Source of the DNA: Cetorhinus maximus
Lineage: Eukaryota
Assembly: GCF_964194155.1 (NCBI RefSeq)
Contig: NC_135901.1
Location: 17,670,001 to 17,734,000, forward strand
Length of the DNA: 64,000 bases
Direction of reading: 5' to 3'
Positions within the stretch are counted from its first letter, which is position 1; each line of letters begins with the position of its first letter. Position numbers and translations under genes: made by a program. Below the pieces are notes generated by a model. It did no database searches, was not told the origin of the DNA, and saw nothing but the letters and a program-made list of their open reading frames with translations. Below are positions 14,724 to 53,521 of this stretch, piece after piece.

Positions 14724-14923
14724 CAAAAACAAAAATACCTGGAAAAACTCAGCTGGTCTGGCAGCATCTGCGGAGAGGAACACAGTTAACGTTTCGAGTC
14801 TGAATGACCCTTCAACAGAAACGTTAACTGTGTTCCTCTCCGCAGATGCTGCCAGACCTGCTGAGTTTTTCCAGGTATTTTTGTTTTTGTTTTGGATTTC
14901 CAGTATCCACAGTTTTTTGCTTT
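14724..14923. mobile_element. Short Penelope-derived foldback insertion with 16-bp TSD
   Basis: Inverted arms at about 14724-14790 and 14820-14890; tatcaagcgttcactg at 14708-14723 and 14924-14939. Confidence 0.8.
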
Positions 14924-26869: not shown

Positions 26870-27335
26870 GATGGGATGAAGCATTTAAGTTATGAAGAGA
26901 GGTTGGATAGACTTGGGTTGTTTTTGTTGGACAAGAGAAGACTGAGGGGTGACCTGATCGAGGTGTACAAGATTATGAGGGGCATGGACCGAGTGGATAG
27001 GGAGCAGCTGTTCCCCTTAGTTGAAGGGTCAGTCACAAGGGGACACAAGTTCAAGGTGAGGGGCAGGAGGTTTAGGGGGGATGTGAGGGAAAACTTTTTT
27101 ACCCAGAGGGTGATGACGGTCTGGAATGCGCTGCCTGGGAGGGTGGTGGAGGCGGGTTGCCTCACATCCTTTAAAAAGTACCTGGATGAGCACTTGGCAT
27201 GTCATAACATTCAAGGCTATGGGCCAAGTGTTGGTAAATGAGATTAGGTAGGTAGGTCAGGTGTTTCTCACGTATCAGTGCAGACTCGATGGGCTGAAGG
27301 GTCTCTTCTGCACCACGTGGTTCTGTGATTCTGTG
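26870..27335 (+). mobile_element. CR1/HER1-like LINE 3' fragment
   Basis: SYEERLDRLGLF...RRLRGDLIEVYKIMRG; tail gtgcagactcgatgggctgaaggg. Confidence 0.85.
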
Positions 27336-27365
27336 ACTGAGAGGATCTTCATCCAGTGATGAAGC

Positions 27366-27674
27366 AACAGTGATGTGTGTCCAGATCTGTAACATTGACT
27401 TACATTTATAACGGTGATGTGTGTCCAAGTCTGTAACATTGACTTACATTTATAACGGTGATGTGTGTCCCAGTCTGTAACATTGACTTACATTTATAAC
27501 AGTGATATGTGTCCCAGTCTGTAGCATTGACTTACATTTATAACAGTGATATGTGTCCTAGTCTGTAACATTGACTTACATTTATAACAGTGATATGTGT
27601 CCTAGTCTATAACATTGACTTACATTTATAACGGTGATATGTGTCCAAGTCTGTAACATTGACTTTCATTTATA
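27366..27674. repeat. 44-bp minisatellite, about 7 copies
   Basis: Unit aac(a/g)gtgat(g/a)tgtgtccNagtctgtaacattgacttacatttat repeats every 44 bp from 27366. Confidence 0.95.
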
Positions 27675-28460
27675 TAGCGCCTTTGCTGTAATCAAACATT
27701 CCAGGGTGTTTTATGGGAGTTTTGCAAAGCAACATCTGACACCAGGACACACGGAGATATCAGGGAAGAAAGTCAAAAGTTTGGTCAAAGAGGTAGGTTT
27801 GAAGGAGTGTCTTAATGAGGAAAGTAAGTTACAGAGATGGAGAGATTTCATGAGGGATATTGTGATTTTTTGCCTTTGGCCAAGCCATGAACACTGAAGG
27901 AACTGAAAATGGGGATGCTGAAGAGACCGGAATTATAAGAGCACAGAGATCTCAGAGGGCTGTGGGGCTGGAGGAGATGACAGAAATAGGGGTGGGCAAA
28001 GCTTTGGAGAGATTTGGAAACAGATGAAAGTTTTAAGATTTGAAGCACTGCTCAACCTGAAGCCTAAGTAGCTCAGTGAGCCTAGAGTAGTGAAGGGTAG
28101 CAGAGTTTTGGATGATCTCAGCTTTACAGAGAGGTTGAATGTGGGATGAATTAGAATAGTCAAATTTAGGGAGTGGAGTGGATGAGAGTTTCAGAAGCAG
28201 ATTAGCTGACTCAGGGGCAAAGCAGGTGAGGTTACTGAGGTGGAAATAGGCGGTGTTCTGTGGTCAGGAGATCAGCTGGGGGGGAAACATGACACTGAGA
28301 TTGTGCCCAGTCTTGTCCAGCCTGGGACAGTTTCCAGGGAGAGGAATGAAGTCAGTGGCGATGGAATAGTTTAGAGCGGGGACTGAAGACAATGTCTTTG
28401 GTCTTCACGATATTTAACTGGAGGAAATTTCTGTTCATCCAGTACTAGGAGTCAGACAAG
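27665..28460 (-). mobile_element. Old L2 LINE fragment
   Basis: Reverse-strand L2 3' end (catttatatagcgcc); inverted paralog of 9580-10800. Confidence 0.7.
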
Positions 28461-39024: not shown

Positions 39025-39450
39025 CTGACAGGGATGACCGCGCATGCGCCCTGCTGCACATTAACCCCGCTCAAGATGGCGGCCGTTAACCCGGGCCTTT
39101 TGCTGGAGACGCGATCCCGCAGCCTTCGCCCCACAGATAGTTTCTTATTTTGGGTTCAGAGCCGCATCGAGTGCTTACGAACGTTCCCCGTCCACCCACC
39201 GGCTCTATTTCTCCCTCCACTCCGCCCTTTATCTTACCTCCTGTGGATCCGACAAACAAGCCTCCATCCACCGCCATTACCCGCACTGCGCACGCTCCAG
39301 ATCACAATGTCTGGTGGATTGACGGAAAATCTGGACCAATAGGAAGAAGGGACGGAGCTGGAGGTCCGATCGTGAGCGTGTGATCGTCCAACCAATCGGA
39401 GTGAATGAGGGGCGGGGCTGAATCCGGATGTCCCTCATTGGCTGAAACTC
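39025..39450 (-). promoter_or_regulatory. CpG-island promoter, probably of the ZNF gene at 33165-34304
   Basis: cgcgcatgcgc near 39040, aagatggcggc near 39073, two CCAAT boxes and ggggcgggg at about 39335-39420. Confidence 0.65.
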
Positions 39451-39674: not shown

Positions 39675-39750
39675 GGTGTCAGCTGTGGCTCAGTTCATAG
39701 CACCCTCGCCTTTGAATCAGAGGGTTGTGGGTTCACGTCCCACTCCTGGA
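39675..39750 (+). mobile_element. tRNA-derived SINE head
   Basis: A-box tggctcagt and B-box-like gggttcacgtccc; related sequence on - at about 59385-59465. Confidence 0.55.
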
Positions 39751-39802
39751 AAAACCAAGAACTGTGATTGTACTCGAAAGAAGTTGGTCTAGGACAGGTT
39801 CA

Positions 39803-39870
39803 GCCTCTTGGCTAAGATCAAGTGTAGTATCTGTTCTTATCTCGGCCTCTTGGCTAAGATCAAGTGTAGT
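39803..39870 (+). pseudogene. RNU2: Two tandem U2 snRNA 5' fragments (U2 nt 12-50, then nt 7-37) forming the leader of Tx1 copy 1
   Basis: gcctcttggctaagatcaagtgtagtatctgttcttatc followed by (tc)tcggcctcttggctaagatcaagtgtagt versus U2 ATCGCTTCTCGGCCTTTTGGCTAAGATCAAGTGTAGTATCTGTTCTTATC; one T>C change in each piece. Confidence 0.93.
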
Positions 39871-39887
39871 GTTGCAGGGGCGACACC

Positions 39888-41450
39888 ATGGTCCTGCCAT
39901 GGCAAGGTCGGGATGGAAGGGCGAAAACCAATCGCAATCCGAATTCATACCGTGGGTTACCTATCACCGTCCGAGTCACGGTGAACCACAGCGACGAAGG
40001 AGGATCACCTATGGATCGGGGCTTCTTCACCAGGAGGATCCTGTTGAAGGCGTGCGGCTTCCAAGCTACGGAGATCTTCACCCTGCACGACTCCCGCAAA
40101 GGTGGTTATTTTGACGTGACGTTCAAGCAAGTGGCAGACTGCGTCCGGCTCCTGAGGGTGTTCGAGGAGAAGAGAGACCTGCCGGAGATGAAGATCCTGA
40201 CGGCGGAGCCGCACTTTTCTCTGCCGTTGCAACGGGAACGTGAGGTGATGGTGCATGTGTACAACCCCTTCGTCCCTGTCGCCGATGTGGTCACCTTCCT
40301 CACCAGGTACTTCGATAAGGTGGGGAGCGGCACTGAGATTCGAGACGACTTGGGGATCTGGACAGGCAAACGCCTGTTTAAGGTCACGCTAAAGACCGAT
40401 GGTAAGGGAGCCATTTTCCACCCTCCTTCCAGTTTCGCTATCGGGGGAAACCGTGGCTACCTGGTCTACGCTGGGCAACCCAAGCATTGTCGCTCATGCG
40501 GCAAGGCTGGTCATGTGGCGGCCAACTGCAGCGCCTCCCTCTGCAAGATCTGCAAACAGGAAGGGCACCAGACAAAAGACTGCAAACAGGCCAAGTGCTG
40601 CAACCTGTGTGGCGAGGCAAGTCACCTCTACAGGACCTGCCCCAAACGCTGCCGTACTTACGCACAGGCAGCCAAAGCCGACCACGGGGAAGCAGAAGAA
40701 ATGTTCCGTGTCACTCCAACCACCAAGGCCCCCAGGGAGCTCAACGGGACAAAGGAGGACACAGAGAGAGACAAGGTGGAGAAAGAGATTGAGGCAACAG
40801 AGAGCCAATCAACAGCACTACCCCCTGAACCTTCCAGTCCTCAGGACAGCGAATCAATGGAGGAGGAGGCAGCAGTGGAAAAGCAGCAGGGGGAGTGGCG
40901 GACGGTGAAGAACAAGAAAAGTAAGAGGGAGCGAAGAAGAAGCAAAGGCGTTTCCCAGAGAAGCGGCAAGAGGCGTCTCCCATCCGACACGGATGACAAG
41001 GGCAGCAGCTCTTCAGATGAGGAAGTGCCAGAGCGGCACCGACAGAAGAGGCGGCAAAGCTCCAGGGCGTTGGAGGACGAGACACCCGAGCTCCAGAAAA
41101 TTGGAGACAACAAGGAGACCAGCGCACCCCAACTTGGCCTGCAACCTGAGGAGGCCAGTGCACCACAGCCCCTGGAATCTGGGAGCAGTGAGGCAATCAT
41201 CGCACCCCAGCTCCAGGAAGCCGGGAACAGCAACCCCCCAGAGGGGGTGAGTTTTGGAGAAGCTTCTCCAGCAAAGGTCATCTCAAAATCCGCTCACTAC
41301 GTGAACCTCCAGATGCCACTGGAGCAGAACACGGCCAAGGAGATCTACCTCAGCCCATCCAAAGTGAAGGAATTTGAGCTCACTACGGGTATGAAGGAGC
41401 AGACTAAAGGTCTGGGACTCTCAGAGACAGTGGGTTTGGTAGGAGAATAA
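39888..41450 (+). CDS. Tx1 ORF1 (ZCCHC3-like N-terminal RNA-binding region plus three CCHC zinc knuckles)
   Basis: CRSCGKAGHVAANC, CKICKQEGHQTKDC, CNLCGEASHLYRTC; basic and acidic disordered C-terminus; 520 aa. Confidence 0.9.
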   Translation: MVLPWQGRDGRAKTNRNPNSYRGLPITVRVTVNHSDEGGSPMDRGFFTRRILLKACGFQATEIFTLHDSRKGGYFDVTFKQVADCVRLLRVFEEKRDLPEMKILTAEPHFSLPLQREREVMVHVYNPFVPVADVVTFLTRYFDKVGSGTEIRDDLGIWTGKRLFKVTLKTDGKGAIFHPPSSFAIGGNRGYLVYAGQPKHCRSCGKAGHVAANCSASLCKICKQEGHQTKDCKQAKCCNLCGEASHLYRTCPKRCRTYAQAAKADHGEAEEMFRVTPTTKAPRELNGTKEDTERDKVEKEIEATESQSTALPPEPSSPQDSESMEEEAAVEKQQGEWRTVKNKKSKRERRRSKGVSQRSGKRRLPSDTDDKGSSSSDEEVPERHRQKRRQSSRALEDETPELQKIGDNKETSAPQLGLQPEEASAPQPLESGSSEAIIAPQLQEAGNSNPPEGVSFGEASPAKVISKSAHYVNLQMPLEQNTAKEIYLSPSKVKEFELTTGMKEQTKGLGLSETVGLVGE

Positions 41451-41460
41451 ATGCTTTAAT

Positions 41461-44400
41461 ATGGGTTTAAAGATTGTATCCATAAATGTGCGTAGCATTA
41501 AATCTACTACGCGATGTGTTGCGACCTTGGACTACCTAGCCAAGGTCAAAGCTGACCTGTTGTTTCTGCAGGAGTGTGCGATACCGCACCTCAGCTCCTA
41601 CAGGCAATGGTCACGATGGTGGTCCCACGGGCCATCGATCTGGTCGGGCGGAAACGACTCTCGTTCCTCCGGCCTGGGTATTCTGCTGCGGGGAGGCAAC
41701 TTCACCGTCTCCGAGGTCAAGGAGGTGGTGGGAGGGCGACTCCTGGTAGCAGACGTAATGTACAAGAACGCTCCACTCCGGTTAATAAACGTGTACGGCC
41801 CGGCACAAGGGGCTGAGCGGCTGGAGGTTTTTCAGCAGCTCCCACTGCTGCTGGCGACCTCCAGGCCGGTCATTCTGGGCGGGGACTTCAACTGCATCAT
41901 CGATGCGGCTGGACGATCCAGCAGGGCCGGAAGCAGATTGGACGCTACGTCCAGATCCCTGATGGAAACAGTTAAGGATGCCAAGCTGCACGACGTCTTC
42001 AGCAACCCTGCAGACGGAGCGCAGCGTAGATACACCTGGTCGCGGCCAGACGGGTCCATTCGTTCCAGGATAGACTTCCTGTTTGTGTCCCGTGCATTCA
42101 CAGTCAGATCCACCGACGTCAAGCCGGTGTTCTTCTCTGACCACTGCCTCCTACTGGCGGACTGCCACTTGGAGGAAGACCTGAGGGTGGGCAGGGGGGC
42201 ATGGAAGCTAAATGTGCAACTGCTGACCCCAGAGAACATTGAGGAGCTCAAGAGGGAGTACAAAGGTTGGAGAACCGTGAAACCCCTCTTTGAGTCCCTG
42301 ACACACTGGTGGGAAGTGATCAAGGGAAGCATCAAGAGGTTTTTCATCCGCAAAGGCACCCAGAAAGCTAGAAAGGAACAGAGGGAAATGTCCCGACTCC
42401 AGGAAAAGATGCAGAATCTGCTCCGGCTGCGGTCGATGGGGGTCGATGTCAAGGAGGAGCTCCAAGAGGTGAAGGGCCAGCAAGCCTCGCACTTTGCCTC
42501 GGAGGCCTCCAAGATCATCTTCCGTTCCAGAGTCCGCTCCGTGGAGCAGGATGAGACGTGCTCACGTTTCTTCTTCCAAAAGGTACACAGAGAGCGCTCT
42601 GTGATCAGCAGCCTGAAGGAAGAAGACGGCTCAGTAAAGTCATCACGGTCCGACATTCTGAGGATCAGCAAATCCTTTTATGCCGGTCTGTATGACGTGA
42701 AGCCCACGGACAGCACGGCCTCCCAGTCCTTCCTGTCCTCTATCACGGAGGTCTTAGACCACAGTACGCGGGAGAGCCTAGACAAACCGCTAACTCCTGA
42801 CGAACTGACTAAGGCCCTCGAGTCCTTCGAGAAGAGTAAAACCCCCGGAAGCGACGGCCTGCCGGCGGAGTTGTATTCGGCTCTGTGGGACTTGATCGGC
42901 CCAGACCTGCTAGAAGTGTACGAGAGTATGCTCCTGGCCGGCAGCATGTCAGAATCCATGAGGAAAGGCATCATCACCCTCATCTACAAGCACAAGGGGG
43001 AAAGGGAGGAAATTAGAAATTGGCGACCCATTTCACTGTTGAATGTGGACTATAAGATTCTGTCCAAGGTCATCGCCAACCGGGTCAAATCCGCTCTGGA
43101 ATTGGTGATTCACCCTGACCAGACCTGCTCTGTGCCAGGCAGGAAGATCTCTGACAGCCTGGCGCTGCTCAGGGATACGATTGCCTATGTACAGGACAGG
43201 GGTGTGGATACCTGCCTCATCAGCTTGGATCAGGAGAAGGCCTTTGACAGAATATCGCACACCTACATGGGGGATGTGCTCTCCAAAATGGGCTTTGGGG
43301 AGGGAATTCGAAATTGGATCCAACTGCTCTACACTAACATCAGTAGCGCAGTCTCAATCAATGGGTGGGAAACAGATAGCTTTCCGATTAAATCTGGAGT
43401 CAGGCAGGGCTGTCCTCTCTCGCCTGTCCTTTTCGTGTGCTGCATAGAACCCTTTGCCGAGTCCATCAGGAAGGATCCGGGCATAAGAGGAGTGACGATC
43501 CCAGGCAGTGGAGGCACTCAGGTAAAAGCCTCCCTGTACATGGACGACGTCGCCGTCTTCTGCTCGGATCCGCTGTCGGTGCGCAGACTGATGCACGTCT
43601 GCGACCAGTTCGAACTGGCCTCGGGAGCCAAGGTAAATCGTGGGAAGAGCGAGGCCATGTTCTTTGGGAACTGGGCTGACCGATCCTTTGTCCCCTTCAC
43701 TGTCAGGGCTGACGGCCTGAAGGTGCTGGGGATATGGTTCGGAGGGACCGGGGCATGCGTTAGAAACTGGAAGGAGCGAGTGGCTATGGTGAAAAGGAAA
43801 CTGGGCATGTGGGAGCGACGCTCCCTCTCCATTGCGGGTAAGAACCTGGTCATCAGGTGTGAGGTACTCTCGCTGTTGCTGTACGTGGCGCAGGTCTGGC
43901 CCATTCCACACTCCTGCGCGATGGCGATCACTCGAGCCATCTTCCGCTTTATCTGGAGGTCGAAAATGGATCGTGTCTGCAGGGACGCGATGTACAAGCC
44001 TCTAGATAAAGGGGGAAAAAACGTGCCCAACATCGCCCTCATACTGATGGCCACCTTTGTGTGTGGCTGCATCAAGCGGTGCGTAGACCCTCAGTACGCA
44101 AACACCAAGTGTCACTACGTGCTGAGGTTCTACCTGTCCCCGGTGTTGCGAAGGATGGGTCTGGCCACGCTGCCGCGGAACGCTCCAAGTAGTTGGACCG
44201 CACCGTACCACCTGTCCCTGGTGGAAAAATTTATGCAGAAAAACACCTTTGACCACAAGTCCATCAGGCAGTGGTCAGCACGTAACGTCCTAGAGGCCCT
44301 GAGGGATAAGGAGAGGGTGGACCCTGTGGGATGGTTCCCCGAGCAGACTGTCAAAGTCATTTGGCAGAATGCCTCATCGCCAGAACTTTCCAACAAGCAC

Positions 44401-44868
44401 CAAGACGTAGCTTGGCTGGTGGTGAGAAAGGCCCTCCCCGTCAGATCCTTCCTACACGCCAGGAGTCTCACCCCCTCTGCACGATGCCCTCGAGGTGGCT
44501 GTGGTGGGGAAGAGACCGTTGTTCACCTCCTTGTGGATTGTGCCTTTGCAAAGAAAGTCTGGAGAGAGATGCAGTGGTTGCTGTCGAGGTTCATCCCGAG
44601 CAGTTCTGTGACACAGGACTCTGTGCTCTACGGGCTGTTCCCAGGGACACACACCGAGACAAACATCGACTGCAGCTGGAGGATCATCAACTCGGTGAAA
44701 GACGCGCTTTGGTCTGCCCGAAACTTGTTGGTCTTCCAGCACAAAGAGTTGTCCCCGACCGATTGTTGCGGACTGGCACAATCCAAAGTCCAGGACTACG
44801 TGCTGAGGGACGCACTAAAGCTTGGGGCAGCTGCCGCAAAGGCGCAATGGGGAAGGGTCGCTGTCTAA
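41461..44868 (+). CDS. Tx1 ORF2: APE endonuclease, reverse transcriptase, C-terminal zinc finger
   Basis: SINVRS, LFLQE, GGDFN, SRIDF, FSDH; NWRPISLLN, LDQEKAFD, GVRQGCPLSP, YMDD; CPRGGC...HLLVDC; 1135 aa uninterrupted. Confidence 0.97.
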   Translation: MGLKIVSINVRSIKSTTRCVATLDYLAKVKADLLFLQECAIPHLSSYRQWSRWWSHGPSIWSGGNDSRSSGLGILLRGGNFTVSEVKEVVGGRLLVADVMYKNAPLRLINVYGPAQGAERLEVFQQLPLLLATSRPVILGGDFNCIIDAAGRSSRAGSRLDATSRSLMETVKDAKLHDVFSNPADGAQRRYTWSRPDGSIRSRIDFLFVSRAFTVRSTDVKPVFFSDHCLLLADCHLEEDLRVGRGAWKLNVQLLTPENIEELKREYKGWRTVKPLFESLTHWWEVIKGSIKRFFIRKGTQKARKEQREMSRLQEKMQNLLRLRSMGVDVKEELQEVKGQQASHFASEASKIIFRSRVRSVEQDETCSRFFFQKVHRERSVISSLKEEDGSVKSSRSDILRISKSFYAGLYDVKPTDSTASQSFLSSITEVLDHSTRESLDKPLTPDELTKALESFEKSKTPGSDGLPAELYSALWDLIGPDLLEVYESMLLAGSMSESMRKGIITLIYKHKGEREEIRNWRPISLLNVDYKILSKVIANRVKSALELVIHPDQTCSVPGRKISDSLALLRDTIAYVQDRGVDTCLISLDQEKAFDRISHTYMGDVLSKMGFGEGIRNWIQLLYTNISSAVSINGWETDSFPIKSGVRQGCPLSPVLFVCCIEPFAESIRKDPGIRGVTIPGSGGTQVKASLYMDDVAVFCSDPLSVRRLMHVCDQFELASGAKVNRGKSEAMFFGNWADRSFVPFTVRADGLKVLGIWFGGTGACVRNWKERVAMVKRKLGMWERRSLSIAGKNLVIRCEVLSLLLYVAQVWPIPHSCAMAITRAIFRFIWRSKMDRVCRDAMYKPLDKGGKNVPNIALILMATFVCGCIKRCVDPQYANTKCHYVLRFYLSPVLRRMGLATLPRNAPSSWTAPYHLSLVEKFMQKNTFDHKSIRQWSARNVLEALRDKERVDPVGWFPEQTVKVIWQNASSPELSNKHQDVAWLVVRKALPVRSFLHARSLTPSARCPRGGCGGEETVVHLLVDCAFAKKVWREMQWLLSRFIPSSSVTQDSVLYGLFPGTHTETNIDCSWRIINSVKDALWSARNLLVFQHKELSPTDCCGLAQSKVQDYVLRDALKLGAAAAKAQWGRVAV

Positions 44869-45103
44869 GACCTTTCTACCACAGCGCACCGAGAGACTGG
44901 GAACTGTTTAGAGCCCCTCGGGCTGTACAGATCAAAATGAAAGGCTGTAAATGATTGTAATATTGTTTGTACTGATGCACCTGGTGATACATTTTGTAAA
45001 AGTTTAACCTGGATTGTACCCTTGTAATGTTGTTTTTGAAATGGTTTTGAATGTGATTGAAGATTTTTTATGAATAAAGTATATTTTTACAAAAAAAAAA
45101 AAA

Positions 45104-45116
45104 GGTTCAGGAGAAT
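45104..45116. repeat. Target-site duplication ggttcaggagaat between the two Tx1 copies
   Basis: Same 13-mer at 50371-50383; partial aggttcag at 39796-39803. Confidence 0.9.
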
Positions 45117-45143
45117 CTCGGCCTTTTGGCTAAGATCAAGTGT
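45116..45143 (+). pseudogene. RNU2: U2 snRNA 5' fragment (nt 7-34) forming the leader of Tx1 copy 2
   Basis: tctcggccttttggctaagatcaagtgt is an exact match to canonical U2. Confidence 0.9.
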
Positions 45144-45158
45144 TGCAGGAGCGACACC

Positions 45159-46721
45159 ATGGTCCTGCCATGGCAAGGTCGGGATGGAAGGGCGAAAACC
45201 AATCGCAATCCGAATTCATACCGTGGGTTACCTATCACCGTCCGAGTCACGGTGAACCACAGCGACGAAGGAGGATCACCTATGGATCGGGGCTTCTTCA
45301 CCAGGAGGATCCTGTTGAAGGCGTGCGGCTTCCAAGCTACGGAGATCTTCACCCTGCACGACTCCCGCAAAGGTGGTTATTTTGACGTGACGTTCAAGCG
45401 AGTGGCAGACTGCGTCCGGCTCCTGAGGGTTTTCGAGGAGAAGAGAGACCTGCCGGAGATGAAGATCCTGACGGCGGAGCCGCACTTTTCTCTGCCGTTG
45501 CAACGGGAACGTGAGGTGATGGTGCATGTGTACAACCCCTTCGTCCCTGTCGCCGACGTGGTCACCTTCCTCACCAGGTACTTCGATAAGGTGGGGAGCG
45601 GCACCGAGATTCGAGACGACTTGGGGATCTGGACAGGCAAACGCCTGTTTAAGGTCACGCTAAAGACCGATGGTAAGGGAGCCATTTTCCACCCTCCCTC
45701 CAGTTTCGCTATCGGGGGAAACCGGGGCTACCTGGTCTACGCTGGGCAACCCAAGCATTGTCGCTCATGCGGCAAGGCTGGTCATGTGGCGGCCAACTGC
45801 AGCGCCTCCCTCTGCAAGATCTGCAAACAGGAAGGGCACCAGACAAAAGACTGCAAACAGGCCAAGTGCTGCAACCTGTGTGGCGAGGCAAGTCACCTCT
45901 ACAGGACCTGCCCCAAACGCTGCCGTACTTACGCACAGGCAGCCAAAGCCGACCACGGGGAAGCAGAAGAAATGTTCCGTGTCACTCCAACCACCAAGGC
46001 CCCCAGGGAGCTCAACGGGACAAAGGAGGACACAGAGAGAGACAAGGTGGAGAAAGAGATTGAGGCAACAGAGAGCCAATCAACAGCACTACCCCCTGAA
46101 CCTTCCAGTCCTCAGGACAGCGAATCAATGGAGGAGGAGGCAGCAGTGGAAAAGCAGCAGGGGGAGTGGCGGACGGTGAAGAACAAGAAAAGTAAGAGGG
46201 AGCGAAGAAGAAGCAAAGGCGTTTCCCAGAGAAGCGGCAAGAGGCGTCTCCCATCCGACACGGATGACAAGGGCAGCAGCTCTTCGGATGATGAAGTGCC
46301 AGAGCGGCACCGACAGAAGAGGCGGCAAAGCTCCAGGGCGTTGGAGGACGAGACACCCGAGCTCCAGAAAATTGGAGACAACAAGGAGCCCAGCGCACCC
46401 CAACTTTGCCCGCAACCTGAGGAGGCCAGTGCACCACAGCCCCTGGAATCTGGGAGCAGTGAGGCAATCATCGCACCCCAGCTCCAGGAAGCCGGGAACA
46501 GCAACCCCCCAGAGGGGGTGAGTTTTGGAGAAGCTTCTCCAGCAAAGGTCATCTCAAAATCCGCTCACTACGTGAACCTCCAGATGCCACTGGAGCAGAA
46601 CACGGCCAAGGAGATCTACCTCAGCCCATCCAAAGTGAAGGAATTTGAGCTCACTACGGGTATGAAGGAGCAGACTAAAGGTCTGGGACTCTCAGAGACA
46701 GTGGGTTTGGTAGGAGAATAA
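45159..46721 (+). CDS. Tx1 ORF1, copy 2
   Basis: ATG at 45159 gives 520 aa; about 5 aa differ from copy 1. Confidence 0.9.
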   Translation: MVLPWQGRDGRAKTNRNPNSYRGLPITVRVTVNHSDEGGSPMDRGFFTRRILLKACGFQATEIFTLHDSRKGGYFDVTFKRVADCVRLLRVFEEKRDLPEMKILTAEPHFSLPLQREREVMVHVYNPFVPVADVVTFLTRYFDKVGSGTEIRDDLGIWTGKRLFKVTLKTDGKGAIFHPPSSFAIGGNRGYLVYAGQPKHCRSCGKAGHVAANCSASLCKICKQEGHQTKDCKQAKCCNLCGEASHLYRTCPKRCRTYAQAAKADHGEAEEMFRVTPTTKAPRELNGTKEDTERDKVEKEIEATESQSTALPPEPSSPQDSESMEEEAAVEKQQGEWRTVKNKKSKRERRRSKGVSQRSGKRRLPSDTDDKGSSSSDDEVPERHRQKRRQSSRALEDETPELQKIGDNKEPSAPQLCPQPEEASAPQPLESGSSEAIIAPQLQEAGNSNPPEGVSFGEASPAKVISKSAHYVNLQMPLEQNTAKEIYLSPSKVKEFELTTGMKEQTKGLGLSETVGLVGE

Positions 46722-46731
46722 ATGCTTTAAT

Positions 46732-49700
46732 ATGGGTTTAAAGATTGTATCCATAAATGTGCGTAGCATTAAATCTACTACGCGATGTGTTGCGACCTTG
46801 GACTACCTAGCCAAGGTCAAAGCTGACCTGTTGTTTCTGCAGGAGTGTGCGATACCGCACCTCAGCTCTTACAGGCAATGGTCACGATGGTGGTCCCACG
46901 GGCCATCGATCTGGTCGGGCGGAAACGACTCTCGTTCCTCCGGCCTGGGTATTCTGCTGCGGGGAGGCAACTTCACCGTCTCCGAGGTCAAGGAGGTGGT
47001 GGGCGGGCGACTCCTGGTAGCAGACGTAATGTACAAGAATGCTCCACTCCGGTTAATTAACGTGTACGGCCCGGCACAAGGGGCTGAGCGGCTGGAGGTT
47101 TTTCAGCAGCTCCCACTGCTGCTGGCGACCTCCAGGCCGGTCATTCTGGGCGGGGACTTCAACTGCATCATCGATGCGGCTGGACGTTCCGGCAGGGCCG
47201 GAAGCAGATTGGACGCTACGTCCAGATCCCTGATGGAAACAGTTAAGGATGCCAAGCTGCACGACGTCTTCAGCAACCCTGCAGACGGAGCGCAGCGTAG
47301 ATACACCTGGTCGCGGCCAGACGGGTCCATTCGTTCCAGGATAGACTTCCTGTTTGTGTCCCGTGCATTCACAGTCAGATCCACCGAGGTCAAGCCGGTG
47401 TTCTTCTCTGACCACTGCCTCCTACTGGCGGACTGCCACTTGGAGGAAGACCTGAGGGTGGGCAGGGGGGCATGGAAGCTAAATGTGCAACTGCTGACCC
47501 CAGAGAACATTGAGGAGCTCAAGAGGGATTACAAAGGTTGGAGAACCGTGAAACCCCTCTTTGAGTCCCTGACACACTGGTGGGAAGTGATCAAGGGAAG
47601 CATCAAGAGGTTTTTCATCCTCAAAGGCACCCAGAAAGCTAGAAAGGAACAGAGGGAAATGTCCCGACTCCAGGAAAAGATGCAGAATCTGCTCCGGCTG
47701 CAGTCGATGGGGGTCGATGTCAAGGAGGAGCTCCAAGAGGTGAAGGGCCAGCAAGCCTCGCACTTTGCCTCGGAGGCCTCCAAGATCATCTTCCGTTCCA
47801 GAGTCCGCTCCGTGGAGCAGGATGAGACGTGCTCACGTTTCTTCTTCCAAAAGGTACACAGAGAGCGCTCTGTGATCAGCAGCCTGAAGGAAGAAGACGG
47901 CTCAGTAAAGTCATCACGGTCCGACATTCTGAGGATCAGCAAATCCTTTTATGCCGGACTGTATGACGTGAAGCCCACGGACAGCACGGCCTCCCAGTCC
48001 TTCCTGTCCTCTATCACGGAGGTCCTAGACCACAGTACGCAGGAGAGCCTAGACAAACCGCTAACTCCTGACGAACTGACTAAGGCCCTCGAGTCCTTCG
48101 AGAAGAGTAAAAGCCCCGGAAGCGACGGCCTGCCGGCGGAGTTGTATTCGGCTCTGTGGGACTTGATCGGCCCAGACCTGCTAGAAGTGTACGAGAGTAT
48201 GCTCCTGGCCGGCAGCATGTCAGAATCCATGAGGAAAGGCATCATCACCCTCATCTACAAGCACAAGGGGGAAAGGGAGGAAATTAGAAATTGGCGACCC
48301 ATTTCACTGTTGAATATGGACTATAAGATTCTGTCCAAGGTCATCGCCAACCGGGTCAAATCCGCTCTGGAATTGGTGATTCACCCTGACCAGACCTGCT
48401 CTGTGCCAGGCAGGAAGATCTCTGACAGCCTGGCGCTGCTCAGGGATACGATTGCCTATGTACAGGACAGGGGTGTGGATACCTGCCTCATCAGCTTGGA
48501 TCAGGAGAAGGCCTTTGACAGAATATCGCACACCTACATGGGGGATGTGCTCTCCAAAATGGGCTTTGGGGAGGGAATTCGAAATTGGATCCAACTGCTC
48601 TACACTAACATCAGTAGCGCAGTCTCAATCAATGGGTGGGAAACAGATAGCTTTCCGATTAAATCTGGAGTCAGGCAGGGCTGCCCTCTCTCGCCTGTCC
48701 TTTTTGTGTGCTGCATAGAACCCTTTGCCGAGTCCATCAGGAAGGATCCGGGCATAAGAGGAGTGACGATCCCAGGCAGTGGAGGCACTCAGGTAAAAGC
48801 CTCCCTGTACATGGACGACGTCGCCGTCTTCTGCTCGGATCCGCTGTCGGTGCGCAGACTGATGCACGTCTGCGACCAGTTCGAACTGGCCTCGGGAGCC
48901 AAGGTAAATCGTGGGAAGAGCGAGGCCATGTTCTTTGGGAACTGGGCTGACCGATCCTTTGTCCCCTTCACTGTCAGGGCTGACGGCCTGAAGGTGCTGG
49001 GGATATGGTTCGGAGGGACCGGGGCATGCGTTAGAAACTGGAAGGAGCGAGTGGCTATGGTGAAAAGGAAACTGGGCATGTGGGAGCGACGCTCCCTCTC
49101 CATTGCGGGTAAGAACCTGGTCATCGGGTGTGAGGTACTCTCGCTGTTGCTGTACGTGGCGCAGGTCTGGCCCATTCCACACTCCTGCGCGATGGCGATC
49201 ACTCGAGCCATCTTCCGCTTTATCTGGAGGTCGAAAATGGATCGTGTCTGCAGGGACGCGATGTACAAGCCTCTAGATAAAGGGGGAAAAAACGTGCCCA
49301 ACATCGCCCTCATACTGATGGCCACCTTTGTGTGTGGCTGCATCAAGCGGTGCGTAGACCCTCAGTACGCAAACACCAAGTGTCACTACGTGCTGAGGTT
49401 CTACCTGTCCCCGGTGTTGCGAAGGATGGGTCTGGCCACGCTGCCGCGGAACGCTCCAAGTAGTTGGACCGTGCCGTACCACCTGTCCCTGGTGGAAAAA
49501 TTTATGCAGAAAAACACCTTTGACCACAAGTCCATCAGGCAGTGGTCAGCACGTAACGTCCTAGAGGCCCTGAGGGATAAGGAGAGGGTGGACCCTGTGG
49601 GATGGTTCCCCGAGCAGACTGTCAAAGTCATTTGGCAGAATGCCTCATCGCCAGAACTTTCCAACAAGCACCAAGACGTAGCTTGGCTGGTGGTGAGAAA

Positions 49701-50139
49701 GGCCCTCCCCGTCAGATCCTTCCTACACGCCAGGAGTCTCACCCCCTCTGCACGTTGCCCTCGAGGTGGCTGTGGTGGGGAAGAGACCGTTGTTCACCTC
49801 CTTGTGGATTGTGCCTTTGCAAAGAAAGTCTGGAGAGAGATGCAGTGGTTGCTGTCGAGGTTCATCCCGAGCAGTTCTGTGACACAGGACTCTGTGCTCT
49901 ACGGGCTGTTCCCAGGGACACACACCGAGACAAACATCGACTGCAGCTGGAGGATCATCAACTCGGTGAAAGACGCGCTTTGGTCTGCCCGAAACTTGTT
50001 GGTCTTCCAGCACAAAGAGTTGTCCCCGACCGATTGTTGCGGACTGGCACAATCCAAAGTCCAGGACTACGTGCTGAGGGACGCACTAAAGCTTGGGGCA
50101 GCTGCCGCAAAGGCGCAATGGGGAAGGGTCGCTGTCTAA
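46732..50139 (+). CDS. Tx1 ORF2, copy 2
   Basis: 1135 aa, intact; about 10 aa differ from copy 1. Confidence 0.97.
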   Translation: MGLKIVSINVRSIKSTTRCVATLDYLAKVKADLLFLQECAIPHLSSYRQWSRWWSHGPSIWSGGNDSRSSGLGILLRGGNFTVSEVKEVVGGRLLVADVMYKNAPLRLINVYGPAQGAERLEVFQQLPLLLATSRPVILGGDFNCIIDAAGRSGRAGSRLDATSRSLMETVKDAKLHDVFSNPADGAQRRYTWSRPDGSIRSRIDFLFVSRAFTVRSTEVKPVFFSDHCLLLADCHLEEDLRVGRGAWKLNVQLLTPENIEELKRDYKGWRTVKPLFESLTHWWEVIKGSIKRFFILKGTQKARKEQREMSRLQEKMQNLLRLQSMGVDVKEELQEVKGQQASHFASEASKIIFRSRVRSVEQDETCSRFFFQKVHRERSVISSLKEEDGSVKSSRSDILRISKSFYAGLYDVKPTDSTASQSFLSSITEVLDHSTQESLDKPLTPDELTKALESFEKSKSPGSDGLPAELYSALWDLIGPDLLEVYESMLLAGSMSESMRKGIITLIYKHKGEREEIRNWRPISLLNMDYKILSKVIANRVKSALELVIHPDQTCSVPGRKISDSLALLRDTIAYVQDRGVDTCLISLDQEKAFDRISHTYMGDVLSKMGFGEGIRNWIQLLYTNISSAVSINGWETDSFPIKSGVRQGCPLSPVLFVCCIEPFAESIRKDPGIRGVTIPGSGGTQVKASLYMDDVAVFCSDPLSVRRLMHVCDQFELASGAKVNRGKSEAMFFGNWADRSFVPFTVRADGLKVLGIWFGGTGACVRNWKERVAMVKRKLGMWERRSLSIAGKNLVIGCEVLSLLLYVAQVWPIPHSCAMAITRAIFRFIWRSKMDRVCRDAMYKPLDKGGKNVPNIALILMATFVCGCIKRCVDPQYANTKCHYVLRFYLSPVLRRMGLATLPRNAPSSWTVPYHLSLVEKFMQKNTFDHKSIRQWSARNVLEALRDKERVDPVGWFPEQTVKVIWQNASSPELSNKHQDVAWLVVRKALPVRSFLHARSLTPSARCPRGGCGGEETVVHLLVDCAFAKKVWREMQWLLSRFIPSSSVTQDSVLYGLFPGTHTETNIDCSWRIINSVKDALWSARNLLVFQHKELSPTDCCGLAQSKVQDYVLRDALKLGAAAAKAQWGRVAV

Positions 50140-50399
50140 GACCTTTCTACCACAGCGCACCGAGAGACTGGGAACTGTTTAGAGCCCCTCGGGCTGTACA
50201 GATCAAAAGGAAAGGCTGTAAATGATTGTAATATTGTTTGTACTGATGCACCTGGTGATACATTTTGTAAAAGTTTAACCTGGATTGTACCCTTGTAATG
50301 TTGTTTTTGAAATGGTTTTGAATGTGATTGAAGATTTTTTATGAATAAAGTATATTTTTACAAAAAAAAAGGTTCAGGAGAATGTCATAATTCAGAATA

Positions 50400-50505
50400 A
50401 CACAGACTCTGAAGAAGAGTCAACGGACTCGAAACATTAACTCTGTCTTTCTTTCCGCAGATGCTGTCAGACCTGCTGTATTTTTCCAGAATTTTTTGTT
50501 TTTCT
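50400..50505 (+). mobile_element. Short Penelope-derived repeat with hammerhead-like core
   Basis: CTGAAGA-a-gagtc-aacg-gactc-GAAAC at 50409-50435, then the gatgctgtcagacctgctg tail. Confidence 0.6.
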
Positions 50506-51239
50506 TACAGACTACAAAGGAACAGCTGATCTCAAAGATAATCTTTTGCAGTATGCGTGGAGGGGATCAGCTGAATCAGGTTTAAAGGGGTGAAATGATA
50601 TTTTTTCTAGATTGGACAATCACATTAAAATCTGCAACTCAGACGGGACCATGGATTATTGCAGATTTCCATCGGTGCATTATTCCAGGAAGCCTTAAAA
50701 TCATACGGACAGTATTTCAGAACCAGGGTTCCAACTACACGGGGGCAACGGGCAATTTCACCCCAGAAAAGCCCGCAAAAAATCAATCACAGGGACAGCC
50801 ACTATAAGAACAACCTTTGTCGGAGGCAGAATCTGTGAGCAGGAGCTCATCCAGTCGCAATGCAGAATCCCAACTGCTGGGGTGCTGGGTAATTGTGAGT
50901 GGAAAATATATTTTTTGTGATTACTTTGTGGTTATGGGATTGAAACTTTGACCATAGACCAATCAATAAAGATCAGAACCAAATGATAAAGAAAGACCAA
51001 TGCACGGAACTTCCATTATACAGCAGAAGGAAGGGGAATGGGCATTTGTGAAGAATTTACAGCAAGTTAGTTGAACATGACTTGCCCTTAACACGTTTGA
51101 GCTGGCTTGAGATATGTTTAAATCACTTCAAGAAATGGAACATGGCAGAGCACCCATTTACTAGGATTTACGTGTGATTTTTCTTTTTATTTGTTCACGA
51201 TTGGGTAGCAGAAAATTGTTTTCGTTCTCTGTTTTGTGT

Positions 51240-52357: not shown

Positions 52358-53521
52358 ATGGAGAAACCATGGAAATGTATGGACTGTGGGAAGGGATTCA
52401 ATTTCCCATCCCAACTGGAAGTTCATCGGCGCAGTCATACTGGGGAGAGACCATTCACCTGCTTTATCTGTGGGAAGGGATTCACCCATTTGTACAACCT
52501 TCGGACACACCAGCGAGTTCACACTGAGGAGAGGCCGTTCACCTGCCCTGTGTGTGGGAAGGACTTCACTCGGTCATCCCACATTGTGACACACCAACTT
52601 GTTCACACTGATAAGAGACCATTTACATGTCCTGACTGTGAGAAGAGTTTTAAATGCAGAAAAGATCTGCTGATACATCAACGTATTCACACTGGGGAGA
52701 GGCCGTTCACCTGCTCCGTGTGTGGGAAGGGATTCATTCAGTCATCCCACCTTCTGACACATCAACTTGTTCACTCTGATAACAAATTTTTTAATTGTTC
52801 TGACTGTGACAAGAGCTTTAAAAGCAAAAAGGATCTGCTAACACATCAATATACTCACACTGGAGAGAGGCCATTCACCTGTACCAACTGTGGGAAGGGA
52901 TTCAGCCGTCCGTCTGCCCTATTGAATCACCAGCGAACTCACACTGGGGAGAGGCCGTTCACCTGCTCTGACTGTGGGAAGGGATTCATTAATTGATCCA
53001 ACCTTCTAATACACCAGCAACTTCACACAGGGGATAGACTGTTCACCTGCTCTGACTGTGGGAAGGGATTCACCCGTTCATCTAACCTTCTGACACATCA
53101 GCAGGTTCACACTGAGGAGAGACCATTCACTTGCTCTGTGTGTGGGAAGGGATTCACTCGGTCATCCAACCTATTGAATCACCAGCGAGTACACACTGGA
53201 GAGAGGCCGTTCACCTGCTCTGTGTGTGGGAAGGGATTCACTCAGTTATCTAACCTGCTGACACACCAGAGCATTCACAGTGAGGAGAGGCCATTTACCT
53301 GCTCTGTGTGTGGGAAGAGATTTTCTCATTCATCCTATCTGCTGAAACACCAGCGAGTTCACAGTGGGGCGAGGCCGTTCACCTGTAATGCCTGCGGAAA
53401 GGCATTCACTCAGTCATCACACCTGCGAACACACCAGTGGGTTCACAAGCGACTGCAAGGTTTGGATTCTACTCCTGTTGATGCTGTTAATCATACCAGG
53501 ACTGAACCATGTTCATTCTGA
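52358..53521 (+). pseudogene. C2H2 zinc-finger gene (13 fingers) with one in-frame nonsense codon in finger 8
   Basis: ORFs 52358-52996 and 53138-53521 share a frame; a single TGA at 52994-52996 separates them; could encode a 7-finger product. Confidence 0.8.

Follow-up and report, generated by a model that had tools for sequence, protein, structure and literature searches.

Tx1/Keno-type LINE copies with U2 snRNA leaders in Cetorhinus maximus and their probable use of U2 gene promoters

Two LINE copies at one nick in a zinc-finger gene cluster

The window analysed here, 64,000 nucleotides (nt) of the Cetorhinus maximus genome (C24:17670001-17734000 in a 4.0 Gb assembly; C and L denote the contigs and loci of our analysis), lies in a cluster of C2H2 zinc-finger genes and holds two intact copies of a Tx1/Keno-type long interspersed nuclear element (LINE), arranged head-to-tail at one nick outside U2 small nuclear RNA (snRNA) genes, each with its own target-site duplication. 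Both copies are headed by U2 snRNA sequence, and the family to which they belong probably borrows the promoters of U2 genes. Read from the left, an 8-bp duplication is followed by U2 nt 13-50, U2 nt 7-37, 17 nt, the ATG of open reading frame 1 (ORF1), the rest of copy 1 with its poly(A), and 13 bp of target DNA; then come U2 nt 7-34, copy 2, its poly(A), the same 13 bp again and host DNA. The features are as follows.

39675-39783, + strand: SINE-like (short interspersed nuclear element) repeat just 5′ of the copy 1 duplication; members of its family also occupy the U2 37/38 site and, at other loci, stand in tandem with the LINE
39796-39803, + strand: left target-site duplication of copy 1, 8 bp, AGGTTCAG; recurs behind the poly(A) of copy 1 and of copy 2
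39804-39841, + strand: distal U2 piece, U2 nt 13-50, C16; 38/38 identical to U2 gene L065; similar double leaders occur at other dispersed loci
39840-39870, + strand: proximal U2 leader of copy 1, U2 nt 7-37, C16; 31/31 identical to U2 gene L065; Rfam U2
39874-39907, + strand: U1 snRNA relic of copy 1, U1 12-31 then 44-57, with the ORF1 ATG at U1 26-28; 16/20 and 10/14 identical to U1 gene L249
39888-41450, + strand: ORF1 of copy 1, 520 aa, two ZCCHC3-type RNA-binding domains and CCHC knuckles (PF23057, PF23058, PF00098)
41461-44868, + strand: ORF2 of copy 1, 1135 aa, apurinic/apyrimidinic (AP)-type endonuclease, reverse transcriptase and zf-RVT (PF03372, PF00078, PF13966)
44869-45103, + strand: 3′ untranslated region (UTR) of copy 1 with AATAAA (45073-45078) and poly(A)
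45103-45115, + strand: intervening target DNA, serving as 3′ duplication of copy 1 and as 13-bp 5′ duplication of copy 2
45116-45143, + strand: leader of copy 2 with U2 nt 7-34, short junction and T16; matches U2 gene L053 at 28/28 positions
45145-45178, + strand: U1 relic of copy 2, holding the ORF1 ATG at 45159; from alignment with U1 genes and older heads
45159-46721, + strand: ORF1 of copy 2, 520 aa, intact
46732-50139, + strand: ORF2 of copy 2, 1135 aa, intact
50140-50370, + strand: 3′ UTR and poly(A) of copy 2
50370-50382, + strand: right target-site duplication, 13 bp, then non-U2 host DNA

Rfam recognized U2 at 39794-39889 (38.4 bits, E 3.5e-4) and at 45110-45203, and the U2 pieces of both copies are 100% identical to U2 genes of the same genome, copy 1 carrying the C16 and copy 2 the T16 allele. 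A preliminary description, made from the letters of the window, had stated that both copies open with U2 5′ sequence about 17 nt before the ATG, that the copy 1 leader ends at U2 nt 37, that the 3′ flanks hold no U2, and that neither U2 1-6 nor the U2 3′ half is present; all of this was confirmed on the two copies, the ATG of copy 1 lying 17 nt past U2 nt 37. The distal U2 piece of copy 1, which joins the proximal leader through a TC microhomology, went beyond that description, as did the two insertions at the same nick and the U1 origin of the 17 nt, the ATG and the first codons. In copy 2, U2 nt 33-34 are a microhomology with the element. ORF1 and ORF2 are uninterrupted in both copies; the AP-type endonuclease is N-terminal in ORF2, whose nearest solved relative is human L1 ORF2p and which has partial matches to shark proteins.

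The copies, offset in register by 5271 nt, differ at 34 positions (99.35% identity), more than the family mean of about 21, and are therefore read as separate insertions that used one nick. The likely order is copy 2 before copy 1, the two having come from different sources. The distal U2 13-50 of copy 1 likely represents the U2 5′ part together with the 38-50 duplication of its source U2 gene, while a template switch to U2 RNA is plausible, given that the reverse transcriptase also switches onto tRNA and U6, but the less favoured origin. A decayed U2 locus, the case that would have undone the preliminary description, is ruled out by flanks of unique DNA with clean duplications.

About 400 bp 5′ of the insertion, a CCAAT/GC-box-rich stretch at 39300-39450 is paralogous to 2202-2432 and is likely a zinc-finger gene promoter, in which case the LINE pair would sit in sense inside a zinc-finger transcription unit.

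U2-resident and dispersed copies of a young family

An exact 23-nt 3′-end motif marks 3,582 element 3′ ends genome-wide. A poly(A) directly followed by U2 38-52 was found at 876 junctions, 38 on C1-C25 and 838 from C29 onward, where the U2 clusters lie; many cluster junctions belong to periodic arrays, so that 876 is not a count of independent insertions. Even so, with 876 such junctions against 3,582 3′ ends, the family is not strictly U2-specific: about three quarters of the 3′ ends lack the U2 38-52 flank, and among the first 100 on C1 a single one fits the U2 junction pattern, with one more (L315) having an interrupted poly(A). The off-target dispersal proposed in the preliminary description is thus real, and it is the majority state of the family, not a rare event.

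A search for 5′ ends gave 1,199 candidates, of which the best 40 were scored, a sample that favours copies matching copy 1 perfectly over 200 nt. All 40 dispersed full-length copies carry the U2 leader, with the junction at nt 37 in 32 and a shorter one, slipped by 5 nt, in eight. The leaders stop at or inside U2 +1; in none of the 40 copies were U2 promoter words found upstream of the leader, and none of the leaders reaches past +1 into shared upstream sequence. Both ORFs are intact in 35 of the 36 copies readable to the end, and these 5.2-kb autonomous elements do not fall under SINEU, defined as short and non-coding. Target-site duplications of 6-22 bp accompany most dispersed copies, so that U2-headed copies with such duplications, which the preliminary description expected, are common. 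The off-target preference is weak, pyrimidine^A and often ^ATC, with no strict consensus among 19 sites (two of them doubtful). As to a preference of the Mariner-N4 kind, the dispersed flanks hold this weak motif and several recurrent repeats. Dispersed copies often sit in a 44-bp satellite-like repeat (nine loci, and window positions 27322-27718), and others lie in two further recurrent repeats, at four and two loci; all three are possible secondary target families.

Searches with each of two U2 promoter types joined to U2 1-37 gave 50 distinct promoter-bearing U2 loci, a number in which unplaced contigs may duplicate alleles: 21 are intact, 19 hold a seamless full-length element, eight a truncated or other insertion, and two the SINE-like repeat. 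The seamless elements join U2 at nt 37 (or 32/34), the Keno site being 37/38, and in all 18 that are readable to the end, neither ORF is interrupted and U2 38+ follows the poly(A). The master copies inside U2 genes, with the promoter upstream and U2 38+ downstream, that had been anticipated are therefore present at 19 of the 50 loci. Truncated insertions in U2 keep a duplication of U2 38 to 41-57. Among type-A U2 genes, T16 is found in 21/21 intact, truncated or SINE loci, whereas C16 occurs in 6/16 seamless full-length loci (Fisher p 0.003). This indicates that the incoming leader replaces host U2 sequence, and hence that the leader is part of the mobile RNA and would pair with the target.

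Several arrangements in U2 genes deserve mention. Type-B U2 genes (L082, L084, L088, L092, and the arrays on C2812 and C516, L043-L051) are often intact, while a second U2 copy without a promoter, frequently G25C, lies 105 nt downstream and carries the element; in arrays the units read U2 1-37, element, U2 38-191 and 105-nt flank, so that a working U2 remains in front and elements accumulate behind. On C30, two intact U2 genes (L088, L089) have T37A at the nick position, possibly an escape variant of the target site. At a promoter-bearing U2 gene on C535 (L094), U2 13-37 is fused to no more than the 3′-terminal 180 nt of the element; this SINEU-like arrangement was seen once.

Dispersed copies also carry footprints of a U2 source. 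At -1, a position occupied by C in U2 genes, a G precedes 11 of the 16 outermost leaders whose first nucleotide is U2 +1 and whose flank is not U2 (binomial p 3e-4); the 16 exclude promoter-flanked, array, poly(A)-preceded, inner-leader and older-subfamily cases, and some of the -1 Gs also belong to the target-site duplication. An extra G before +1 is the expected trace of a copied cap. When 20 of the 38 poly(A)-U2 38-52 junctions on C1-C25 were sampled, all 20 ran into more element after 15-59 nt of U2, and not into a full U2 gene (one passing through a tRNA), which is the layout of tandem insertions in U2 genes. L267 on C6 and L270 on C8 have both their junction and private variants in common, with different flanks; in L146/L278, a single insertion enclosed by a 15-bp duplication, a double U2 leader stands in front and U2 38-57 behind; and in L255/L256, U2 38-187 and its gene flank were transported to C3. 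The presence of U2 38-5x and downstream element on dispersed copies traces these copies to U2 genes. Double leaders carry U2 past nt 37, with distal ends at U2 36-53.

Tandem trains like that of the window are frequent. Among the first 100 3′ ends on C1, 19 have a same-strand neighbour within 5.6 kb and none an opposite-strand one, with 0.3 expected. Of nine clusters read, six have a duplicated stretch of unique DNA lying between insertions of different RNAs (full, truncated, SINE, tRNA, U6), two target U2 +1 of an older leader, and one is a U2 38-57 transduction. With so weak an off-target preference, we infer that the trains, the window pair included, arise by re-use of an unsealed nick. The reverse transcriptase also forms chimeras, identified with Rfam as an intron-containing tRNA and a tRNA in L268 and L300 and a full U6 snRNA in L309, and L236 is a U2 1-45 retrocopy with poly(A). 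The SINE-like family represented at 39675-39783 occurs at the U2 37/38 site, in LINE trains and dispersed with U2 heads to nt 86-92 (eight further loci), and is for the first two reasons a likely passenger of the LINE; it is also likely a SINEU-like chimera in the making. No tRNA origin was found for the upstream SINE by ARAGORN or Rfam, hence the name SINE-like.

Sequence variation is consistent with one young gene pool, copies differing on average at about 21 positions over 5.2 kb. No fixed difference separates the 38 dispersed from the 17 U2-resident copies compared, and 36/50 sites vary in both groups. In the alignment of 55-61 copies, 694/1,225 site pairs show all four gametes (38% of pairs under 200 bp and 59% over 1 kb apart), a mosaicism that suggests either conversion between masters or template switching on RNA. 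In ORF1, silent changes are commoner among variants shared by several copies (18/31) than among private ones (7/40). Neither leader allele nor junction type gave a signal of tracking the body tree (p 0.51 and 0.37), tests that are weak because of the heavy recombination among copies.

A U1 relic and the proposed source of the transcripts

The 17 nt after U2, the ATG and about seven further codons align with the U1 genes of this genome, U1 12-31 at 16/20 and U1 44-57 at 10/14 positions. The 54-nt leader is thus entirely snRNA-derived and contains no upstream ATG. The preliminary claim that the element has almost no 5′ UTR of its own is supported, and was even too generous, as the remaining 17 nt derive from U1. 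From 130 matches to U1-type heads ending in ACCATG, 20 were read, chosen toward the heads nearest the relic; behind 17 of them lies the ORF1 of subfamilies that are older and share 73-88% identity with the young family. These heads form a graded series, from U1 1-34 joined to U1 41-57, through a 6-nt deletion and the placing of U2 in front, to the young U2 1-37 form, with L233 and L237 as intermediates that carry U2 1-54 or 1-47 ahead of the U1 head. In L047, a 98%-identical relative stands directly before U1 39-164 and its gene flank, the nick being 38 nt from the U1 start, compared with 37 nt in U2. A complete U1 head with the young A19C variant was represented by one exact match only and by no large family. 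On these sequence relations, we infer that the element moved from U1 to U2 genes. The start context at 39885-39891 is ACCATGG in the young family and ACCATGA in older ones; by the Kozak rule ACCATGG is the stronger initiation context. An older-subfamily copy, L158 (C29:14416173), has a double U2 leader at another position of ORF1, without the U1 stub, and is possibly an independent U2 capture.

Taken together, the copies are best explained by a Keno-type LINE that borrows U2 promoters through U2-resident masters and seeds dispersed U2-headed copies, a reading to which we assign a probability of roughly 0.85 and which supports the preliminary proposal of a U2-element chimera made from a host U2 promoter. 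That promoter would drive the masters at U2 37/38 and yield capped U2(1-37)-element RNAs, with initiation at U2 +1, as suggested by the DNA footprints, and with the extra G before +1 representing the copied cap. Some of these chimeric RNAs would return to U2 genes, but many more would land at sites across the genome that resemble the target only loosely. In U2 genes the leader could pair with U2 1-37 and give seamless 5′ junctions, as in R2 with 28S (cited in PMC4494074), while re-use of the same nick would generate the tandem trains. The dispersed copies, mostly without a promoter, would mostly be dead ends, and the phase in U2 genes would have followed an earlier one in U1 genes. A fuller account, which we hold probable but with distinctly less confidence, is that of a living promoterless LINE on borrowed snRNA promoters that started out in U1 genes, acquired the start codon of ORF1 and the codons next to it from U1 RNA, moved to U2, has masters in more than a third of promoter-bearing U2 genes, overwrites host U2 alleles and seeds thousands of dead-end copies.

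Several observations weigh against this account. Many dispersed haplotypes, including those of the window, have no close U2-resident match (28-30 differences), and a permutation comparison of dispersed and resident copies gave p 0.059, so that other masters, possibly outside U2 genes, may exist. No source of the copy 1 double leader was found among the 50 promoter-bearing U2 loci, and junctions akin to it occur only at promoterless U2 copies (L150-L152, L157) and at the truncated L094. The sources of the 20 transduced junctions were not among the cluster loci compared, which represent only a small fraction of the 838 junctions in clusters; the junction of L104 (U2 1-47 and 3′ UTR, a would-be SINEU) was absent from the 40 dispersed copies scored. 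Single extra U2 pieces need not be read-through, as the reverse transcriptase switches onto small RNAs. Finally, insertion ahead of a U1 3′ part was observed at a single locus, and alleles possibly duplicated on unplaced contigs may affect the U2 locus counts.

The haplotype groups without a close resident match, together with the intact ORFs of nearly all dispersed full-length copies, would also suit a mixture of sources, in which U2 masters dominate and some dispersed copies behind host promoters, as probably in the window, spread as well. We allow this a small chance, since host read-through should leave leaders that extend past U2 +1 into shared upstream sequence, and 0/40 do. A further departure from U2-resident masters would be a U2 head fixed as a permanent 5′ UTR, with an internal promoter (for example in ORF1) making any full-length copy a master and residence in U2 incidental. 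The junction, invariant apart from the 5-nt slip, and the same unmatched haplotypes agree with such a capture, and the U1 relic shows that a head can become fixed. However, the 54-nt leader is wholly snRNA-derived, and snRNA promoters lie upstream of the RNA, as stated in PMC4494074; the U2 38-5x transductions and the junction common to two chromosomes trace copies to U2 genes, and double leaders hold U2 beyond nt 37, which the head lacks. The leader varies with, and exchanges alleles with, the U2 genes and overwrites the host allele, contrary to a fixed private 5′ UTR, the second case that could have overturned the preliminary description. We regard fixed capture as improbable.

It is less likely still that the main leader arises because the reverse transcriptase, on completing each insertion, jumps to a free U2 snRNA molecule. 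Such switching is invoked for SINEU heads in PMC4494074, and the present family offers its tRNA and U6 chimeras, the U2 pieces to nt 86-92 before the SINE in L232 and L235, and the U2 1-45 retrocopy; yet jumps made anew at each event predict variable junctions, whereas 40/40 lie at nt 37 or at the 5-nt slip, and the distal ends of double leaders fall mostly within the duplication range of U2-resident insertions. For the window pair alone, the 99.35% identity might suggest that one insertion was duplicated in tandem at the DNA level or was doubled in the assembly. This is contradicted by the 34 differences and by each copy being nearer to copies elsewhere (copy 1 differs from L188 on C9 at eight positions); leaders and duplication lengths also differ between the copies, and same-nick trains are common, so that we give this explanation hardly any weight.

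Relation to known elements and further features of the window

Keno, relaxed Utopia and U1/U2-headed crocodilian Tx1 elements are already known. Keno (KenoDr1, Keno-1_SSa; Tx1 clade, Kojima and Fujiwara 2004) is inserted 37 nt into U2 and is described as U2-specific in the accessible parts of PMC6136364, PMC4640811 and PMC4494074. It shares with our family the AP-endonuclease type of LINE, the position 37 nt into U2 and the 3′ target TCTGTTCTTATCAGTTTAAT (PMC6136364), and tandem insertions in U2. The present elements combine an AP-type endonuclease and reverse transcriptase in ORF2, a separate RNA-binding ORF1, and insertion at U2 37/38 with a U2 38+ 3′ flank, and the label Keno-type is proposed on insertion site, target and domain make-up; no named Keno or Tx1 reference was among 48 homologues. 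Our family departs from Keno in having about three quarters of its 3′ ends outside U2, a U2 leader that moves along with the copies, and an ORF1 start taken from U1. Utopia uses the same U2 site and includes reptile families with relaxed specificity and insertions outside U2, but belongs to another clade with a restriction-like endonuclease, and a travelling U2 leader is not reported in the accessible text (PMC4640811). The endonuclease found here is AP-type and N-terminal.

The closest parallel is offered by crocodilian Tx1-Mar elements with U1/U2 heads (Tx1-2_Crp, Tx1-2B_Crp, Tx1-4_AMi, Tx1-11_Crp) and by SINEU (PMC4494074). According to the available text, these Keno-related Tx1 elements likewise have U1/U2-derived 5′ ends, recurrent snRNA heads, tandems sandwiching duplications, and locations outside snRNA genes; however, they are old (85-91% to consensus), target Mariner-N4, and have no snRNA-gene masters described in that text (PMC4494074). 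The family described here is young; its masters behind U2 promoters are intact, and its passage from U1 to U2 heads can be followed through a series of copies. A U2 head is present on 40/40 dispersed copies, and of the 20 U1-type heads read, 17 sit on older copies. R2 elements in 28S rRNA genes are also promoterless and co-transcribed with the target gene, and target-derived 5′ RNA aids their precise 5′ junctions; they depend on RNA polymerase I and ribozyme self-excision, and stay site-specific. The element described here would resemble R2 in using the transcription of its target gene and in its target-derived 5′ RNA, but it likely retains the capped host start and disperses widely.

In Kojima 2015 (PMC4494074), the transcription of snRNA-headed retroposons is an open question, because snRNA promoters lie outside the RNA, and the U1/U2 heads are ascribed to template switching. 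In the literature searched (subscription papers and Repbase entries lying outside the search, and crocodilian heads compared from text, without figures), we found no description of dispersal fed by masters under snRNA promoters, of a switch from U1 to U2, or of an ORF1 start derived from U1. A young system makes the question of transcription and head acquisition traceable in DNA and directly testable and, if our reading is true, would supply a missing mechanism for the transcription of SINEU and U1/U2-headed Tx1 and for the repeated gain of snRNA heads. The host switch would have left a protein start built of spliceosomal RNA sequence. The family also places a heavy load on an essential gene family, with 29/50 promoter-bearing U2 genes interrupted, and exemplifies element-driven exchange of U2 alleles, while the frequent insertion of several RNAs at one nick bears on the completion of LINE integration.

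Elsewhere in the window, the ORF at 52358-52996, downstream of the pair, looks decayed upstream of its ATG. Long perfect inverted repeats at 14755-14858 and 9919-9997 gave spurious miRNA matches, the former consisting of two opposed copies of a repeat that is also present at 50433-50541.

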